64,000 nt of DNA, from contig DAOQZZ010000013.1 in the NCBI GenBank assembly GCA_035343915.1, positions 9,171-73,170 on the forward strand, given 5' to 3'. The position numbers and the translations under genes are program-made. The notes beneath the pieces are model-generated. The model was given only the letters and a program-made list of their open reading frames with translations. It ran no database searches and had not been told where the DNA came from. Origin of the DNA: Gordonia sp. (in: high G+C Gram-positive bacteria). GTDB taxonomy: Bacteria > Actinomycetota > Actinomycetes > Mycobacteriales > Mycobacteriaceae. This document shows positions 16,725-26,056 of the stretch, piece after piece (positions within the stretch are counted from its first letter, which is position 1; the number at the start of each line of letters is the position of its first letter).

Positions 16725-16889
16725 CGCCGACTGGGCCCTCCTAACCCGCCGACTGGGCTTCCGCGTCCGCCGACTGGGCCCTCCTAGCCCGCCGACTGGG
16801 CTTCCGCGTCCGCCGACTGGGCCCTCCTAGCCCGCCCACTGGGTCGTCCTCGGTCGCCCACTGGGTCGTCCTCGGTCGCCCACTGGGTC
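16725..16889 (+). repeat. Tandem array of 8 x 21-22-bp units with core CGCC(G/C)ACTGGG
   Basis: Cores start at 16725, 16747, 16768, 16790, 16811, 16833, 16855 and 16877; only three linker types occur. Confidence 0.95.
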
Positions 16890-17503
16890 ATCACGGGATT
16901 CGTCAGACTCCGCACGGCGAAGAGCCGGCCTAAGTCACGTGTCTCCGACGCAGATCTCACGTCCCCATCAACGACGTCGAACCCCGCGGCCGCAACGTGT
17001 TCCGCAAGCAACTCGGGGGGCCAGGAGTAGCCCAAGGTCACCGCGTGGTCAAAGGTCATGAGCTCGGTCCCGACGAAGTATCCGATCGCCAGGCCTCCGC
17101 CTGTCCGGACACACCGGGCGAACTCGGCGAGCGCCACGTCAAGCTGCTGCGGCGCCAAGTGGATCAGCGAGAACCACGCAAGGATTCCACCGAGACTGCT
17201 GTCCCTCTCATCAAGTCGTCGGGCGTCGCCGAGCCGAAACTCGAGACCGTCGTGCGCGCGACGCGCCTCGTCGATGAACTCCGGCACTACATCGACACCG
17301 GCGATATAAGCACCAGCGCCATGGAGAAACCGTGTCCATTGCCCTGGACCGCAACCGACGTCGATGATTCGGCCGCTGAGCCCCCCGACCCACTCAACCA
17401 ACCGGGTCCGATCGACGTCGGACGCCGACTCGATGTTGCCGAACAGATCGATGTACTCGACGGCTCGTCGTGAGTAGGCGGCGCGCACGTCTTCCTCAGT
17501 CAC
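16784..17503 (-). CDS. Class I SAM-dependent methyltransferase
   Basis: IIDVGCGPG, GVDVV, GDAR and AWFSLIH motifs. GTG start inferred; the C-terminus runs into the repeat array. Confidence 0.85.
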   Translation of the reverse strand: MTEEDVRAAYSRRAVEYIDLFGNIESASDVDRTRLVEWVGGLSGRIIDVGCGPGQWTRFLHGAGAYIAGVDVVPEFIDEARRAHDGLEFRLGDARRLDERDSSLGGILAWFSLIHLAPQQLDVALAEFARCVRTGGGLAIGYFVGTELMTFDHAVTLGYSWPPELLAEHVAAAGFDVVDGDVRSASETRDLGRLFAVRSLTNPVMTQWATEDDPVGDRGRPSGRARRAQSADAEAQSAG

Positions 17504-17535
17504 TCCGCAAACGATAGCGCTGCACTGACTCACCA

Positions 17536-17654
17536 CCCACTCGGCGGCGTGAGACGACCCACTCGCGGGATTTCCTGGCCCACTCGGCGGCGTGGGAGGG
17601 CCCACTCGGCGGCGTGGGAGGGCCCACTCGCGGGACTTCCGGGCCCAGTCGCGG
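17536..17654 (-). repeat. Tandem array of 6 x 21-22-bp units (CCCACTCG core on +), inverted relative to the 16725 array
   Basis: Cores at 17536, 17558, 17579, 17601, 17623 and 17644. The reverse complement CGCCGAGTGGGCCCTCC matches the left array CGCCGACTGGGCCCTCC. Confidence 0.93.
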
Positions 17655-17655
17655 C

Positions 17656-19953
17656 CTAGTCGTCGTCGCCAGATTCAACTCGACGGCGCTCGCGGCGCGC
17701 GGCAGCGACCATGTTCCGCAGCGACGGCTCCAACTGCCAGTAGTGGCGCGTCTTGAGCCCACCGTCGGGGTTGACCCACAACCGCTTCGGATCGATGTAG
17801 CGGGCGGCCAACTGGATGAGGTCGTCGATCTCGTCGATCTCGGGGATCAGCGCGCTACGGCTCTCGTACACACCCGGCCCAACACCATGCGACAGGGTTG
17901 TGCCCTTCGCCAACTGTGCGAAGACCCAGTCCAGGTGCCGCGTCGCGACGACCGACACCACGTCGGCATCCATCGCCTCGAACGCGTCGACAACCCGGCT
18001 GATCGATGAGTAGCCCAGGTGCGTGTGGATCTGCGTCTCCGGCTTCGCGCCGCCGACGGCGAGGCGGAAAGCGTTGACCGCCCAGTCCAAATAGCCCTGG
18101 CGTCCGCGCTCGCGCAGCGGCAGGAGTTCGCGGATCGACGGCTCGTCGACCTGAATGATTTTGATGCCGGCCTTCTCCAGGTCGGCGATCTCATCGCGCA
18201 CCGCCAGTGCGATCTGCTCGGCGGTCTCATACATCGGCTGGTCCTGGCGCACGAACGAACGCGCCAGCATCGTGACCGGACCGGTGAGGATGCCCTTGAC
18301 CGGCTTGTCGGTCAGTGACTGTGCGTAGCCTGTCCACTCGACGGTCATCGGGTGCTTGCGCTTGATGTCGCCGTAGATGATCGGCGGGCGCACGCAGCGG
18401 GAGCCGTACACCTGCACCCAACCCTGGTGGGTTGCGGCGTAGCCGTCCATCAGTTCGGAGAAGTACTGCACCATGTCGTTGCGCTCGGCCTCGCCGTGCA
18501 CCAGGACATCCAGGCCGATGTCCTCCTGCAACTCGATGACGCGCTTGATCTCGTCACGCAGTCGCTGGGCGTACTCCTCCCACGACAGCCGGCCCTGGCC
18601 GTAGTAGTACCGCGCCTGGCGCACCTCGTTGGTCTGTGGAAACGAGCCCAAGGTCGTCGTCGGGATGATCGGCAGACCCAGCGCCTTGTCCTGCAACGGC
18701 TTGCGTTCCGCGTAAGGGAGCCGCTGGCGCTGATCCGGGCGGATGTTGGCCACGCGCTGACGGACGTCGTGCTTGAGCTTGAAGTGCACCGTCGCCGGCC
18801 GCGAATACCAGTGCTCCGGCGCACCGTGGGTGACGGCCTTCGCCAGCGCCACGACCTCGGCGACCTTCTGCTTGGCGAAGGACAACCGATCGGCGACGTC
18901 GCCGGGCAGGTCGGGCTCGATCAGGACGTCGATCGGGACGTGCATCAACGAGCACGACGTCGAGACGACCACGTCGGGGATGTGTTCCTTGATCTCCAGG
19001 AGGAAGTCGAGCTTGCCGCCCTTGGCGGCCTTCCACACGTTGCGGCCGTCGATCACGCCGGCATAGAGGCGCTTGCGCTTGAGCCCGGGCACCGCACCCA
19101 GTTCGGCCGCCGACATCGGCTCGCTGACCAGGTCGACGCCGATCGCCTCGATATTCGTCGATGCCAGGATCGGCAGCGCGTCAGCGAGGTCGCCGTAGGG
19201 TCCGGTGACGAGGATGCGCGGGCGCAGCGCGCCACGGCTCAGCTCGGTGTAGGCCTGGCGCAGCGCACCCAGATCAGACTCTGTACGGTCGCTGGTGAAG
19301 CAAGGCTCGTCGAGTTGCACGCACTTGCAGCCCTGCTTCGCCAGACGCTCGAACAAGTCCGCGTAGACCGCCAGCAGGTCGTCGAGCCGATCGATCGGCG
19401 CGAAGCCCTCCGGCGACCCGGGCGCGGCCTTGCTCAGCAGCAGCAGCGAGGTAGGACCGAGAATAACCGGGCGCAGTTCGATGCCTTCGGCCTTGGCACG
19501 ACGATGCTCGTCGAGCAGCCCCTCGGCGTTCAGCGCGAACACCGTGTCCGGGGCGATCTCAGGCTGGCGGTAGAAGTAGTTCGTGTTGAAGTACTTGACC
19601 AACTCCAACGGCGGATGCCCGGGCTTGCCGCGCGCCATCGCGAAGTACAGGTCGATCGGTTCCAGCTCGTCGACGAGGTCGGTGAACCGCGGCGAGATCG
19701 CGCCGAACAACACCGCGTTGTCCAACACGTGGTCGTAGAACGAGAACGTGTTGCCCGGCACCTGCTCGAGCCCGGTGGCGGCCAGTTCGTTCCAGACGCC
19801 GTCGGCGAGTTCGCGACCGGTGGCCAGCAACTCGTCGCGGCTCAACGAGCCGTGCCAGTAGCCCTCGAGGGCAGCCTTCAGCTCGCGGTGGGCGCCGATA
19901 CGGGGATAACCCAGAATCGACGAACCGTACTCGATGCCGTCCGGACTCGTCAT
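17656..19953 (-). CDS. metE: Cobalamin-independent methionine synthase homologue lacking three of four Zn ligands
   Basis: Full two-barrel MetE (LGYPRIG, GSFPQT, GEAERNDMVQYF, YGSRCVRPP, DEP), but HTHLGYS, DADVVSVVAT and NPDGGLKTR replace the canonical HTHMCYS, DADVITIET and NPDCGLKTR. Confidence 0.9.
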   Translation of the reverse strand: MTSPDGIEYGSSILGYPRIGAHRELKAALEGYWHGSLSRDELLATGRELADGVWNELAATGLEQVPGNTFSFYDHVLDNAVLFGAISPRFTDLVDELEPIDLYFAMARGKPGHPPLELVKYFNTNYFYRQPEIAPDTVFALNAEGLLDEHRRAKAEGIELRPVILGPTSLLLLSKAAPGSPEGFAPIDRLDDLLAVYADLFERLAKQGCKCVQLDEPCFTSDRTESDLGALRQAYTELSRGALRPRILVTGPYGDLADALPILASTNIEAIGVDLVSEPMSAAELGAVPGLKRKRLYAGVIDGRNVWKAAKGGKLDFLLEIKEHIPDVVVSTSCSLMHVPIDVLIEPDLPGDVADRLSFAKQKVAEVVALAKAVTHGAPEHWYSRPATVHFKLKHDVRQRVANIRPDQRQRLPYAERKPLQDKALGLPIIPTTTLGSFPQTNEVRQARYYYGQGRLSWEEYAQRLRDEIKRVIELQEDIGLDVLVHGEAERNDMVQYFSELMDGYAATHQGWVQVYGSRCVRPPIIYGDIKRKHPMTVEWTGYAQSLTDKPVKGILTGPVTMLARSFVRQDQPMYETAEQIALAVRDEIADLEKAGIKIIQVDEPSIRELLPLRERGRQGYLDWAVNAFRLAVGGAKPETQIHTHLGYSSISRVVDAFEAMDADVVSVVATRHLDWVFAQLAKGTTLSHGVGPGVYESRSALIPEIDEIDDLIQLAARYIDPKRLWVNPDGGLKTRHYWQLEPSLRNMVAAARRERRRVESGDDD

Positions 19954-19965
19954 AGTGCAGACCCG

Positions 19966-20838
19966 CTACTTCGCGTCGTACTGGTAGAACCCGTGTCCGG
20001 CCTTCTTACCGATGCGCCCGGCCTCGACCATGCGCAGCAGCAGCGGCGGCGGCGAGTACAGCGGCTCCTTGAACTCCTCGTACATCTTGTCGGCGATGGC
20101 CTTGACGGTGTCGAGGCCCACGAGGTCGGTCAGCTTGAGCGGACCCATCGGGTGCGCACAGCCCAGGACCATGGCCTTGTCGATGTCCTCGACCGTCGCG
20201 AAACCGGACTCGACCATCCGGATGGCGGAGAGGAGGTAGGGCACCAGGAGGGCGTTGACCACGAAGCCCGAGCGGTCGGCGGAACGGACGACCTGCTTGC
20301 CCAGGACGTCGCGCGCGAAGTCCTCGGCGCGCTCGGACACCTCGGGGCTGGTCATCAGCGTCGTCACCAGTTCGACCAGGGGAAGGACCGGAACCGGGTT
20401 GAAGAAGTGCATGCCAACGACGCGGGCCGCGTTCTGGGTGGCCATGCCAAGCTTCATGATCGGGATGGAGGAGGTGTTCGACGCGAGCACGGCGCTCGGG
20501 TCGGTGACAACCTTGTCCAGCTCGGCGAAGATCGCGGTCTTGACCGCTTCGTCCTCGACGACGGCCTCGACGACGAGCTGCCGGTCGGCGAAGTCACCGA
20601 GGTCGGAGGTGAAGCGCAGCCGCCATGCGGCCTGCTCGCGCTCGCGCTCGGTCAGCTTGCCGCTGGACACACCGCGGTCCAGCGACCGCATGACGCGGGC
20701 GCGGCCAGCAGCGGCGAGTTCGCGGGTGGATTCATAGACCAGGACATCGACTGAGGCGCGCGCACACACCTCGGCAATTCCTGCGCCCATCTGGCCGGCA
20801 CCGATGACACCGACTCGCGTGATCTTCTGGCTTGCCAT
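19966..20838 (-). CDS. fadB2: 3-hydroxybutyryl-CoA dehydrogenase
   Basis: GAGQMGAGIA, VEAVVE, ASNTSS, GMHFFNP and PMGP motifs; lies downstream of icl. Confidence 0.95.
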   Translation of the reverse strand: MASQKITRVGVIGAGQMGAGIAEVCARASVDVLVYESTRELAAAGRARVMRSLDRGVSSGKLTEREREQAAWRLRFTSDLGDFADRQLVVEAVVEDEAVKTAIFAELDKVVTDPSAVLASNTSSIPIMKLGMATQNAARVVGMHFFNPVPVLPLVELVTTLMTSPEVSERAEDFARDVLGKQVVRSADRSGFVVNALLVPYLLSAIRMVESGFATVEDIDKAMVLGCAHPMGPLKLTDLVGLDTVKAIADKMYEEFKEPLYSPPPLLLRMVEAGRIGKKAGHGFYQYDAK

Positions 20839-20874
20839 GGGACGGCTCCTCAAACTGGGATCTGTAACGCGGGG

Positions 20875-21031: not shown

Positions 21032-22324
21032 CTAGTGGAACTGGCCCTCTTCGGTCGAGCCCTTGAGCGCCGCGGTCGACGTGTTGGGGTCGACGGTGGT
21101 GGCGATCTTGTCGAAGTAGCCGGCACCGACCTCGCGCTGGTGCTTGGTGGCGGTGTAGCCGCGCTCCTCGGCAGCGAACTCGCGCTCCTGCAGGTCGACG
21201 TACGCCTTCATCTGCTCGCGGGCGTAGCCGTAAGCCAGGTCGAACATCGAGTAGTTGAGGGCGTGGAAGCCGGCCAGGGTGATGAACTGGAAGGTGAAGC
21301 CCATCGCGCCGAGCTCGTTCTGGAACTTGGCGATGGTGTCATCGTCCAGGTGCTGCTTCCAGTTGAACGACGGGCTGCAGTTGTAGGCCAGGAGCTGATC
21401 GGGGTGCTCCGCCTTGACGGCCTCGGCGAACTTCTTCGCGAGCTCCAGGTCGGGCTTGCCGGTCTCCATCCAGATCAGGTCCGCGTACGGGGCGTAGGCC
21501 TTGGCGCGGGCGATGCAGGGCTCGACGCCGTTCTTGATCCCGTAGAAGCCCTCGCTGGTGCGGGTGCCGTCCAGGAACGGGCGGTCGCGCTCGTCGACGT
21601 CGGAGGTCAGCAGCGTGGCGGCCTCAGCGTCGGTACGGGCGATGACGACCGTCGGGGTGTTGGCGACATCGGCGGCCAGGCGAGCAGAGGTCAGGGTGCG
21701 GATGTGCTGCTGGGTCGGGATGAGCACCTTGCCACCGAGGTGGCCACACTTCTTCTCCGAGGCGAGCTGATCCTCCCAGTGGGTACCGGCGGCACCCGCA
21801 GCGATCATGGCCTTCTGCAGCTCGTAGACGTTGAGCGCGCCACCGAAGCCGGCCTCACCGTCGGCGACGATCGGCACCAGCCAGTTGTCGACCGACTCGT
21901 CACCCTCGACACGCGAGATCTCGTCGGCGCGCAGGAGGGCGTTGTTGATGCGGCGCACGACGGCCGGGACCGAGTTGGCCGGGTAGAGCGACTGGTCGGG
22001 GTAGGTGTGGCCCGAGAGGTTCGCGTCACCGGCGACCTGCCAGCCCGACAGGTAGATGGCCTTGAGGCCCGCGCGGACCTGCTGCACGGCCATGTTGCCA
22101 GTGAGGGCGCCCAGCGCGTTGATGTAGGAGCCGTCGCCCTTGGTCACGCCGTCCCACAGGACCTCCGCGCCGCGGCGGGCCAGGGTGTGATCCTCGACGA
22201 CGTTGCCCTGGAGCTCGGCAACCTGCTCGGCGGTGTAGTCGCGGGTGATGCCCTTCCAGCGGGGGTTGGTGTCCCAGTCGTTCTGGATTTCCGCGGCGGT
22301 GCGGGGCTTTCCGACGTTGCTCAT
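21032..22324 (-). CDS. aceA: Isocitrate lyase
   Basis: KKCGHLGGK signature; [12 protein letters not shown] and [11 protein letters not shown] motifs. Confidence 0.98.
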
Positions 22325-22476
22325 TAGTGCATTCGCTTTCTTTGACTTACGAAAAGGCCGTGACGATTGCGAAGAATCCGAGGCCTCTAGGCGGTGCCTG
22401 ATGTAAGCGTGCCACACGACAAACCTGCAGGTCCAATCGTTTCGGAATGCAAATTCAGGGCATCCTATGGCGCTAT

Positions 22477-22493
22477 TTTGCAAAGTTTGCAAA
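22477..22493. promoter_or_regulatory. Tandem TTTGCAAA boxes (RamB-type operator) upstream of icl
   Basis: TTTGCAAA-G-TTTGCAAA. The reverse strand reads CAAACTTTGCAAA, close to the corynebacterial RamB consensus A(A/G)AACTTTGCAAA. Confidence 0.8.
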
Positions 22494-22672
22494 TATAGAG
22501 GTGTGAATGTTCTGCCCGCTCGCGCCAAAAAGTACGCGCGTACTGGGATTTCGATGTCGGGCTCGTTCGACGACAAACGCCGTAGTTGCGCGCGTCATGC
22601 GGCGAAACCACGGCCGTGCACGGCCGCAGTGTGCGGGGAGTCACATGCTCCGACGACGGGGATGCGCCGGGA

Positions 22673-23452
22673 TCAGGTCTGTCCGGCCGCGGCCAGCGCC
22701 TTGCTGAACAACTCCAGGAATGCGGTGTCGCTCATCGGCTCGGACACCTCTGGGAACGGTTTGGTGAACGGCGTCGGATCCCCGGCGACGGTCACCGCGA
22801 CCGTGTACCGATTACGCTCGGACGGGCCCGGCGTGCGAGCCGCGGCGTACGCCGCGAAGGACACCGACCGCGATGTCGTGCCATCAGGCAAGGTCGTCGT
22901 CGTGTCTGTGCGTAGAGCGAGCATTTGGGAGATGTCGAGCCGGCCGAGTCGGCCCAGTCGCCCCGGCCGTGCGCCCACGAGCTGCGGTGGCGTCAGCTTG
23001 CGGTGTTCGGCGGTGATGACCGCCCCGGCGCGCGAACCCTCGGTGATCGTCGTGCGCGTGGTGGCACACCCGCCGGTGCGCTCGGCGATGTCGGCGTCGA
23101 TGTTGCGCGCCAACGCGACCACGAGATTGCTCAACGTCGCATCGGCGCTGCGAGCGGCGAGTACCGCCGCGTTGTCGGTGTCGAGGCGCTTGTTGAGATC
23201 GGCATCAGCGGTGGGCCGGCACTGCGCCGGTACGACGCCGGCCTTGGCGGCTACTGCCAACGCCTCGGCATTCGCATCGACCAGCTCACCGATTCCGGCA
23301 CTGACCGGGGAGAACCCGGACGGCAGCGACGACGGGGACAGCAACATCGTTCCCGGAGCGGGCGGCGCCAGGTCTACCGTGGAGGAGCAGCCCACCAGCC
23401 CGATGACGGCGGCCGTGGCCGCGATCGCCGTCGACGCTCTCGGAGAACCCAT
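22673..23452 (-). CDS. Putative lipoprotein (DUF5642-like)
   Basis: Lipobox LVGC after a hydrophobic signal peptide; lies between icl and ramB. Confidence 0.7.
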   Translation of the reverse strand: MGSPRASTAIAATAAVIGLVGCSSTVDLAPPAPGTMLLSPSSLPSGFSPVSAGIGELVDANAEALAVAAKAGVVPAQCRPTADADLNKRLDTDNAAVLAARSADATLSNLVVALARNIDADIAERTGGCATTRTTITEGSRAGAVITAEHRKLTPPQLVGARPGRLGRLGRLDISQMLALRTDTTTTLPDGTTSRSVSFAAYAAARTPGPSERNRYTVAVTVAGDPTPFTKPFPEVSEPMSDTAFLELFSKALAAAGQT

Positions 23453-23476
23453 GCGCGACACCGTACCCGGCACACC

Positions 23477-24946
23477 GTGACGACCGCCCGCGCGCACTCG
23501 AAAGCCGACGACGCCCGCCGGTCGGGTTCCCAGTACGTGGGTTCTCGGCTCAAGCAGTTGCGGGCCGAGCGCGGCATGTCACAGGTGCGCCTCGCCACCG
23601 ACCTGGGCATCTCGGCGTCCTACCTGAACCAGATCGAGCACGACACCCGTCCGCTCACGGCGGCGGTGCTGGGCCGCATTTCCGAGGTGTTCGGCGTGGA
23701 CGCCGGGTTCTTCGACCCGCAAGACGACATCCGGCTCGTCGCAGAGCTCCGTGAGGCACTCATCGAGGAGCGCGTCGGCGACGCGGAGTCCACCGGCACG
23801 CCCATGGACCCGCACGAGCTCGCCGACATCGTTGCCGCGCACCCGGCCATCGCCGAGGCGGTCGTCAACCTGCACCGGCGCTATCGCGTCGCCGCCGATC
23901 AACTCGCCGCGGTCACTGACGAGCGCGGCGACCGCAGCATGCGCGGTGCGATCAGCGCTCCCCACGAGGAGGTACGCGATTTCTTCTCCGCGCACCACAA
24001 TTACTTCAACGACCTCGACGTCGCGGCCGAGGAGATGGTGACGCGGATGCGCATGCATTCCGGAGACGTGCGCACCGAGATCGCGAATCGTCTGGAGACG
24101 GTGCACGGCGTACAAATCGTGCGACGCGTCGACCTTGGCGACGACGTACTGCACCGGTTCGACGCCCAGGCGGGCCGCCTCGAGATCTCCGCGGCACTCG
24201 GCCCCGGTCAACGGACCTTCAAGCTGGCCTTCGAATTGGCGTACCTGGCCTACGGCGACCTCATGCGCGAACTCGTCGATGACGCCGGCTTCACCTCTGA
24301 CGACGCGCGGTCCCTGGCGATGTCGGGCCTGGCCAACTACTTCGCGGCAGCGGCGGTGATGCCGTATGAGCAATTCCACGGCGCGGCCGAGGACTTCCGC
24401 TACGACATCGAGCGACTGTCGGCGTTCTATTCGGTCTCCTACGAGACGATCTGTCATCGCCTCTCGACGCTGCAGCGCCCCAATCTGCGCGGCATCCCGT
24501 GGTCGTTCGTGCGCGTCGACCGTGCCGGCAACATGTCCAAGCGGCAGTCCGCGACCGGTTTCCACTTCTCCGCCAGCGGCGGCACCTGCCCGCTGTGGAA
24601 CGTGTACGAGACGTTCGCATCGCCGGGCAAGATCCTCAGCCAGGTCGCGCAGATGCCCGACGGCCGCGAGTACTTCTGGGTCGCGCGCACGGTCGAGCGA
24701 CGGGCCGCCCGGTTCGGACAGCCGGGCAAGACGTTCGCCATCGGGCTGGGCTGTGAGCTGCGGCACGCCGGACGCGTCGTCTACTCCGACGGATTGGAGA
24801 TCGGCCCACAGGCCCGGGTCACCCCAATCGGATCGGGCTGTCGTGTTTGCGAGCGCATCCAGTGCCCGCAGCGCGCCTTCCCGCCGTTGGGGGTGCCGCT
24901 GCACATCGACGAGCACCGCAGCAGCATCTCCCCCTACGGCACGTAA
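23477..24946 (+). CDS. ramB: RamB/PrpR-family short-chain acyl-CoA regulator
   Basis: Xre HTH (LGISASYLNQIEHD), RLSTLQRP, GGTCPLW and CRVCERIQCPQRAFP motifs; lies next to icl. Confidence 0.92.
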   Translation: MTTARAHSKADDARRSGSQYVGSRLKQLRAERGMSQVRLATDLGISASYLNQIEHDTRPLTAAVLGRISEVFGVDAGFFDPQDDIRLVAELREALIEERVGDAESTGTPMDPHELADIVAAHPAIAEAVVNLHRRYRVAADQLAAVTDERGDRSMRGAISAPHEEVRDFFSAHHNYFNDLDVAAEEMVTRMRMHSGDVRTEIANRLETVHGVQIVRRVDLGDDVLHRFDAQAGRLEISAALGPGQRTFKLAFELAYLAYGDLMRELVDDAGFTSDDARSLAMSGLANYFAAAAVMPYEQFHGAAEDFRYDIERLSAFYSVSYETICHRLSTLQRPNLRGIPWSFVRVDRAGNMSKRQSATGFHFSASGGTCPLWNVYETFASPGKILSQVAQMPDGREYFWVARTVERRAARFGQPGKTFAIGLGCELRHAGRVVYSDGLEIGPQARVTPIGSGCRVCERIQCPQRAFPPLGVPLHIDEHRSSISPYGT

Positions 24947-25951: not shown

Positions 25952-26056
25952 CGCCGACCGAGCCTGAATCCCCGCCGACTGAGCCCAATCCACCACCGAC
26001 CGAGCCCAATCCACCACCGACCGAGCCCAATCCACCGCCGACCGAGCCCGGTCACC
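25952..26056 (+). repeat. Tandem array of 5 x 21-bp units (C(G/A)CCGAC(C/T)GAGCC core)
   Basis: Units start at 25952, 25973, 25994, 26015 and 26036. Confidence 0.93.

Follow-up and report, generated by a model that had tools for sequence, protein, structure and literature searches.

MetE-X, a full-length MetE paralogue without a zinc site encoded in the icl-fadB2 locus of Gordonia and related actinomycetes

We analysed a 64,000-nucleotide stretch of a Gordonia sp. genome (assembly GCA_035343915.1, contig DAOQZZ010000013.1, positions 9,171 to 73,170 of the forward strand; hereafter the window) for one gene at 17656-19953 on the minus strand, which encodes a full-length paralogue of MetE that lacks the zinc site. 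The label MetE-X is used here for the clade of zinc-less MetE paralogues to which the window protein belongs. With a probability of about 70%, the data presented below point to MetE-X as a neofunctionalised, metal-free MetE paralogue that would not act as a methionine synthase and would be expressed together with the glyoxylate shunt. Despite the name metE under which it is filed, MetE-X is very probably not a methionine synthase. It is a widespread, so far unrecognised variant of a well-known enzyme family: hundreds of genomes of Rhodococcus, Nocardia, Gordonia, Williamsia and related genera carry a 'metE' that is very probably unable to make methionine. All of the best 120 database homologues of the window protein are named MetE, just as an earlier reading of this DNA, made from the sequence only, had expected of a standard annotation, and a literature search found no published description of a zinc-less actinobacterial MetE paralogue.

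Fold and active-site residues of MetE-X

The open reading frame (ORF) of MetE-X in the window is uninterrupted and specifies a protein of 765 aa. Both MetE domains are present (PF08267 with 341 bits and PF01717 with 407 bits), giving the two-barrel architecture, and the closest solved structures are full-length MetE enzymes, with Arabidopsis 1u1h found at E = 1e-192. The family model NF003556 scores the protein at 944 bits, well above its cut-off of 541, while its score of 887.7 bits with TIGR01371 falls under the cut-off of 929.95. The canonical MetE encoded in the same genome, to which MetE-X is 47% identical, clears both models and reaches 1040 bits with TIGR01371. An AlphaFold2 (AF2) model of MetE-X has a predicted local distance difference test score (pLDDT) of 77 and matches MetE structures with template modelling (TM) scores of 0.81-0.85, the face-to-face double-barrel fold being kept. 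The motifs GSFPQT, GEAERNDMVQYF, YGSRCVRPP and DEP were all found, and a domain search of the protein revealed no attached DNA-binding or signalling domain.

In Escherichia coli MetE the zinc is held by His641, Cys643, Glu665 and Cys726 (PMC539065, PMC7857596). Alignment of MetE-X to Arabidopsis MetE (1u1h) and to E. coli MetE (b3829, from NC_000913.3) places His645, Gly647, Val669 and Gly731 at these positions. This confirms the earlier observation of an intact 765-aa MetE homologue with exactly these four residues, and the codon coordinates then given for 647, 669 and 731 proved exact. The zinc histidine is retained within His645-Leu-Gly647 (18013-18021, minus strand), where a codon check shows Gly647, encoded by GGC at 18013-18015, in place of Cys643. 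Val669 (codon GTC, 17947-17949, minus strand) stands for Glu665, and Gly731 (codon GGT, 17761-17763, minus strand) for Cys726. Following the residue roles of PMC539065, the pterin-stacking tryptophan (E. coli Trp561, Thermotoga maritima Trp539) corresponds to Arg565 (18259-18261, minus strand), so that the segment CWSF reads ARSF. The sequence-only reading listed the three ligands and the ARSF change correctly, but overlooked a further loss, in which Glu-Ser-Arg-Ser-Ala (residues 697-701; 17851-17865, minus strand) is aligned with the invariant Asp-Ile-His-Ser-Pro (DIHSP) of canonical MetE (E. coli 692-696). The DIHSP histidine is the candidate general acid that activates methyl-tetrahydrofolate (PMC539065).

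The residues for the amino and carboxylate groups of homocysteine are kept in MetE-X (Ser437, Glu488, Asp603 and the Asp-Met-Val (DMV) loop); the sole change among these amino-acid-clamp positions is from Ile, whose carbonyl binds the amino group, to Leu. Also kept are Glu609, which binds the pterin N3 and 2-amino group, the N-domain Lys, and the groove for the glutamate tail, with the arginines of YGSRCVRPP and the N-terminal Arg/Lys of PRIGxxRELK. As judged from these alignments, the chemistry of MetE is lost in MetE-X and much of the substrate scaffolding is kept.

One explanation of this pattern is that MetE-X is still a methionine synthase that works without zinc, be it as a zinc-sparing isozyme, by activating homocysteine through the new arginines, or with another metal. 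The kept homocysteine clamp, pterin-binding Glu and glutamate-tail groove would fit such an enzyme, and bacteria are known to deploy zinc-independent paralogues of their zinc enzymes, which counts for a zinc-sparing form. We nevertheless consider a zinc-independent synthase improbable. The pterin-stacking Trp and the DIHSP His, both needed to activate a poor methyl donor, are lost as well, and the residues that took the place of the zinc ligands (Gly, Val and Gly) offer no substitute metal ligands.

The exchanged positions carry a fixed set of replacement residues, consisting of Val669, Arg565, Glu697-Ser-Arg699, Trp676, Tyr449 and Gln740. In an alignment of 42 sequences Arg565, Val669, Trp676, Glu697, Ser698, Arg699 and Gln740 were invariant. 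In the comparison of MetE-X with the canonical group, 20 positions were fixed for different residues. Several of these changes alter charge, namely E665V, E672W, D634P, E735Q, W561R and H694R (E. coli numbering). Because acidic groups have given way to neutral or basic ones, two arginines have been gained and the metal has been lost, we infer that the former metal pocket is more cationic in MetE-X than in MetE.

Conservation, origin and distribution

Among the best 120 database homologues, all 31 that were read carry the same substitutions as the window protein, to which identity amounts to 88-97% in Gordonia, 74-79% in other Gordonia and in Williamsia, and 65-68% in Rhodococcus, Nocardia and Skermania. 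A set of 78 genome-derived sequences split cleanly into two groups, one with the motif states of MetE-X and one with canonical states. For the tree and for the tabulation of diverging positions, 23 clade members and 44 canonical sequences were compared. The canonical proteins all have the Cys, Glu, Cys, Trp and DIHSP residues, whereas the MetE-X members have HTH-[L/I]-x-Y (HTHIGL in one member from genus g87), (I/V)VATR, NPD(G/F)GLK, A(R/F)SF and YESRS(A/G). Position 669 is Val in 23/23 clade members and Glu in 44/44 canonical sequences, position 731 is Gly in 22/23 (Phe in the remaining one) and Cys in 44/44, and position 565 is Arg in 22/23, again with Phe in one. The E, S and R of ESRSA are invariant across the clade. 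Position 647 is free to vary (G/T/A/S/P/E), so that of the Gly/Val/Gly triad whose conservation had been put up for survey, 669 and 731 held and 647 did not. The lineage with Phe for Arg565 (genome G283, genus g87) is the one with HTHIGL, and its VATR strand is longer by one inserted residue; its Phe implies that Arg565 is not absolutely required.

In the phylogenetic tree the MetE-X clade is monophyletic, with a value of 100 in the Shimodaira-Hasegawa-like approximate likelihood ratio test (SH-aLRT), sits on a long stem (0.47 substitutions per site) and is nested among actinobacterial MetE sequences. It lies closer to the canonical MetE of the order's other families than to that of its own family, with a support of only 81-90 in a quick search. 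The ratio of nonsynonymous to synonymous substitution rates (dN/dS) lay at 0.07-0.11 in close pairs and near 0.2 in saturated ones (overall range 0.07-0.23), compared with approximately 0.15 for canonical metE in the same genome pairs, a value slightly inflated by upstream codons in the frames. Between genera, MetE-X proteins are 64-78% identical, just as canonical MetE proteins are. MetE-X is under strong purifying selection and has a single old origin. It is a large metalloenzyme that gave up its metal site, the residue stacking on the methyl donor and the candidate general acid together, and then remained under strong selection for long, with a new set of invariant residues.

These data bear directly on the idea of a decaying gene or of strain-specific sequencing errors. 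Only the loss of catalytic residues speaks for it, and we give it practically no credence, as the reading frame is open in every MetE-X locus, identical substitutions occur across genera, dN/dS is approximately 0.1 and the clade is monophyletic. Chance is ruled out likewise, since every orthologue examined shows these states again. The view taken in the sequence-only reading, that the gene is retained for a non-canonical role, is borne out by substitutions fixed across a clade of many genera and by close-pair dN/dS values no higher than those of canonical metE.

The distribution of MetE-X was determined in 401 sampled genomes of the host's family. A genome was called positive by a match at clade level (E 0 to 1e-270); the genome count was taken from the match table, and the motif state was verified in fetched loci. 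MetE-X was present in about 212 of the 401 genomes and in 26 of the 34 genera, including 7 of the 37 genomes of the window's own genus. Mycobacteria-like and corynebacteria-like genera in this sample had no MetE-X. A search of 1.8 billion cluster representatives yielded one full-length representative of the clade and one fragment. In Gordonia without MetE-X, an HbhA/TadA-like gene directly follows icl-fadB2, and in Gordonia with MetE-X the same gene follows MetE-X, which identifies the latter as a cleanly present-or-absent accessory gene.

The icl-fadB2 locus and methionine synthesis elsewhere in the genome

In the window, a RamB-type regulator with helix-turn-helix (HTH), M78-like and ScfRs C-terminal domains (23510-24946, plus strand, start approximate; identified by domain matches) is followed on the minus strand by icl, encoding isocitrate lyase (21032-22321; NF011645, 762 bits), fadB2, encoding 3-hydroxybutyryl-CoA dehydrogenase (19966-20841; NF005875, 527 bits), MetE-X and a gene for an S-adenosylmethionine (SAM) methyltransferase. 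The fadB2 stop codon (TAG) and the ATG of MetE-X are separated by 12 nt (19954-19965, minus strand); the sequence-only reading had put the start of the gene 13 bp after fadB2. No promoter-like or terminator-like site was found at this junction. At MetE-X in the window and at 9 other loci, no Rfam family reached the gathering threshold, in line with the earlier expectation that the gene has no riboswitch of its own.

The order icl-fadB2-MetE-X on one strand was found in all 20 loci examined, from 17 genera, with spacers of 6-272 nt, and a RamB-type regulator was seen upstream in 17 of them. The link to icl-fadB2 suspected from the window alone is thereby upheld, and it agrees with an RNA-seq paper in which an icl-adjacent 'metE' moves with icl. 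In the loci inspected, no downstream gene was conserved across the clade. The neighbours on this side are lineage-specific: several Gordonia loci have an HbhA/TadA-like protein with Lys/Ala repeats, and in Rhodococcus/Nocardia-type loci the next gene encodes a zinc-type alcohol dehydrogenase. With the RamB-type regulator as neighbour, icl, fadB2 and MetE-X would form one expression unit in which MetE-X comes third. Given this place in the unit, it would be made when the glyoxylate shunt operates on acetate or fatty acids and not according to methionine or B12 status. So strict a linkage suggests that MetE-X has an accessory function, unrecognised until now, in the glyoxylate shunt or in the metabolism of lipid carbon, a pathway important for persistence in related pathogens.

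RNA-seq of Rhodococcus qingshengii IGTS8 found 'metE' peg5907 induced on dibenzothiophene at mid-log only, and icl peg5905 had the same pattern. As the numbering fits the order icl, fadB2, MetE-X, peg5907 is probably the MetE-X paralogue. Like this sulfur-source RNA-seq paper, a selenite proteomics paper reports induction of a 'metE' in R. qingshengii, which could be taken in favour of a zinc-independent methionine synthase. In the literature, 'metE' of Rhodococcus and Nocardia is treated as a methionine or selenocompound enzyme (PMC13689224, PMC13414329, PMC3751702), and omics papers have already read a gene that is probably of the MetE-X type as part of sulfur or methionine metabolism (PMC13689224, PMC3751702). 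The genome paper on Nocardia cyriacigeorgica lists metE and isocitrate lyase in one genomic region. No proteomics paper linking methionine synthase with isocitrate lyase was found; the gene is not mentioned in an acetone proteomics paper, and a lipid-inclusion paper lists FadB2 and no MetE.

Methionine synthesis is otherwise provided for in the window's genome. The earlier suggestion to look for a canonical metE or metH elsewhere led to both: a canonical metE with all catalytic residues on contig C1 and an intact metH. A cobalamin riboswitch (RF00174, 90 bits) lies at about 174286-174484 on the minus strand of contig C1, approximately 160 nt upstream of the canonical gene. B12 therefore represses the real MetE, and MetE-X is without such control. 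From this we infer that the organism makes its methionine with metH and with the canonical metE that is under riboswitch control.

When 21 genomes with MetE-X were checked individually, 9 had no canonical MetE, and all 9 had MetH. In the family sample MetH was present in 373 of 401 genomes, and the 28 genomes without it comprised corynebacteria-like genomes, another small-genome genus, genus g73 and one incomplete genome. Four genomes with MetE-X had no MetH, three of them from one genus, and each had a second MetE-family match, verified as canonical in one (G255). Among the about 212 MetE-X genomes of the sample, none was without both MetH and a second MetE-family gene. These counts further lower the probability of a zinc-independent methionine synthase: MetE-X is never the sole methionine synthase homologue in 401 genomes and, in the MetH-less genus g73, is accompanied by a canonical MetE. 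Nor would such an enzyme be expected in a carbon-metabolism locus without regulation of the methionine or B12 type. MetE-X is the sole 'metE' in many of these genomes. Should it indeed make no methionine, a B12-independent synthesis of methionine is wrongly predicted from such genomes, and the organisms depend on MetH.

The same surveys speak to a structural role of MetE-X as heteromer partner, either of canonical MetE or of Icl/FadB2. Such a partner could well have an active site that is dead in an intact fold, and the tight icl-fadB2 linkage would suit it too, yet we rate this role as very improbable. The sequence-only reading had listed a scaffold or heteromer partner among its possibilities; with 9 of 21 MetE-X genomes devoid of canonical MetE, a role as partner of MetE cannot be general. 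Icl and FadB2, for their part, do not need MetE-X, because icl-fadB2 exist without it in mycobacteria-like genomes and in most Gordonia. Nothing in the data favours an interface.

A class-I SAM methyltransferase ORF (16784-17605, minus strand) lies directly after MetE-X and is bracketed by two 22-bp tandem arrays (16725-16889 and 17536-17630); a third related array is located at 25952-26049. None of 20 other loci examined, those of the two closest relatives among them, has the methyltransferase at this position, and it looks like a strain-specific insertion. A methyl-cycle pair of MetE-X and this methyltransferase was considered and rejected on account of this absence. The gap between icl and the RamB-type regulator (22322-23509) measures approximately 1.2 kb in the Gordonia loci inspected (the window and L036) and approximately 0.4 kb in two other genera (L041 and L042). 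In the window it holds an ORF of 274 aa without Pfam match (22673-23497, minus strand).

Possible function and known relatives

The reading that we prefer for the function of MetE-X, at somewhat below even odds, is that it catalyses a new metal-free reaction. New catalysis is preferred over a purely binding or regulatory role because the replacement residues show the invariance of a catalytic set. If the remodelled pocket is indeed more cationic, it would bind an anionic ligand without metal, presumably of the amino-acid or folate type. The amino-acid clamp and the folate-tail groove would then work together with a new Arg565/Arg699/Glu697/Trp676 pocket, and the substrate could be an anionic metabolite of the glyoxylate shunt, such as a dicarboxylate-type compound or one linked to glyoxylate, glycine or C1-folate. 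In its fullest form, which we put forward more tentatively, this proposal makes MetE-X a new metal-free enzyme on the MetE double barrel that would supply a missing accessory step when actinomycetes of the Nocardia, Rhodococcus and Gordonia type assimilate acetate and fatty acids.

A somewhat unlikely but serious alternative is that MetE-X is a true pseudoenzyme without catalysis, which would bind homocysteine, methionine, a different amino acid or folylpolyglutamate and, as sensor, sink or regulator, would in this way couple C1 or sulfur status to growth on the glyoxylate shunt. The amino-acid clamp and the folate-tail residues are kept and every residue with an assigned role in the chemistry is lost, as would be expected of such a protein, and the free variation at position 647 fits as well. 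The combination of catalytic-residue loss with purifying selection by which pseudoenzymes are recognised is found in MetE-X. However, the invariance of Arg565, Val669, Glu697, Ser698, Arg699, Trp676 and Gln740 across genera is what one would sooner expect of a specific new site, and dN/dS is as low as or below that of the active enzyme. Moreover, a two-barrel protein of 765 aa would be a costly sensor, and it has neither a DNA-binding nor a signalling domain. On balance, the invariant replacement residues lean towards a new functional site rather than a non-catalytic pseudoenzyme.

Several observations weigh against the view of MetE-X as a neofunctionalised metal-free paralogue expressed with the glyoxylate shunt. 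AF2 confidence is low in precisely the remodelled active-site loops, so that the argument on pocket charge is one from sequence only. His645 is retained, and the residues present would make an unconventional metal site with Glu697 or other residues conceivable. Many relatives with icl-fadB2 have no MetE-X, which marks it as accessory; the link to the shunt may therefore be one of regulatory convenience and not of shared chemistry. The assignment of peg5907 to the MetE-X type is drawn solely from gene order. Finally, the never-sole-synthase result is supporting and not decisive, since almost all genomes of the family have MetH.

Compared with canonical MetE (E. coli b3829, T. maritima TM1286 and the copy on contig C1 of the same genome), MetE-X has the same two-barrel architecture and length, amino-acid clamp, DMV loop, pterin Glu and tail Arg/Lys residues. 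It differs by the absence of Cys643, Glu665, Cys726, Trp561 and the DIHSP His, by its score under the TIGR01371 cut-off, and by its location in the icl-fadB2 locus without cobalamin riboswitch, whereas canonical metE stands alone. A parallel to the loss itself is offered by the MetE N-barrel and by UroD, barrels of the same lineage which, like MetE-X, have lost zinc and homocysteine binding and have kept a distorted barrel and a function. In the MetE N-barrel the function left after zinc loss is tail binding, and UroD performs metal-free catalysis with Arg/Asp residues. In MetE-X, unlike in the MetE N-barrel, the loss has struck the C-terminal, normally catalytic barrel of a full-length protein, so that neither barrel has a metal site. 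The likeness of MetE-X to UroD is at fold level only (TM about 0.3 over the whole model). MetE-X is a good system for studying how homocysteine/zinc-binding (Hcy/Zn) barrels are repurposed, as has been proposed for UroD. Recruitment of a MetE-family barrel to carbon catabolism is known from epoxyalkane:coenzyme M transferase of alkene-oxidising Xanthobacter, Gordonia and Mycobacterium. This single-barrel enzyme, unrelated to icl, differs from MetE-X in that its zinc site is kept and a thiol is activated.

Members of the methionine synthase superfamily without conserved zinc residues have been described before. Price, Deutschbauer and Arkin (2021) reported 'non-enzymatic' MesB-like homologues from Chloroflexales, in which the HCEC/HCDC zinc residues are not conserved (PMC7857596). 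They share this feature with MetE-X; however, they are single-barrel core proteins from three genomes, whereas MetE-X is a full-length folate-type MetE found in approximately half of the family's sampled genomes, where its genomic partner is fixed. The search of 1.8 billion cluster representatives also brought up unrelated full-length 'MetE' proteins whose zinc sites are broken, from Tropheryma whipplei (H-R-E-A, 822 aa), Nannochloropsis (H-A-E-G), Oceanicella and Chitinophaga (among P0214, P0271, P0206, P0215 and P0134), and a 'MetE' from an Actinomycetes metagenome-assembled genome has W561R, H694R and C726R with the zinc His, Cys and Glu kept. Like MetE-X, these zinc-broken proteins have full length, are filed as MetE at their sources and are missing at least one Cys or Glu ligand. 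They differ from it by an identity of 33-46%, by their different substitutions and by apparently belonging to independent lineages, which indicates that loss of the MetE zinc site happened more than once and is generally masked by annotation.

The window's genome holds a third member of the superfamily on contig C133 (L003, 1477-2475, minus strand). This gene encodes a single-barrel, MetE_C-like protein of 332 aa (PF01717, 67 bits) with His-x-Cys and Cys motifs, and it adjoins a ligA-like ORF and another ORF.

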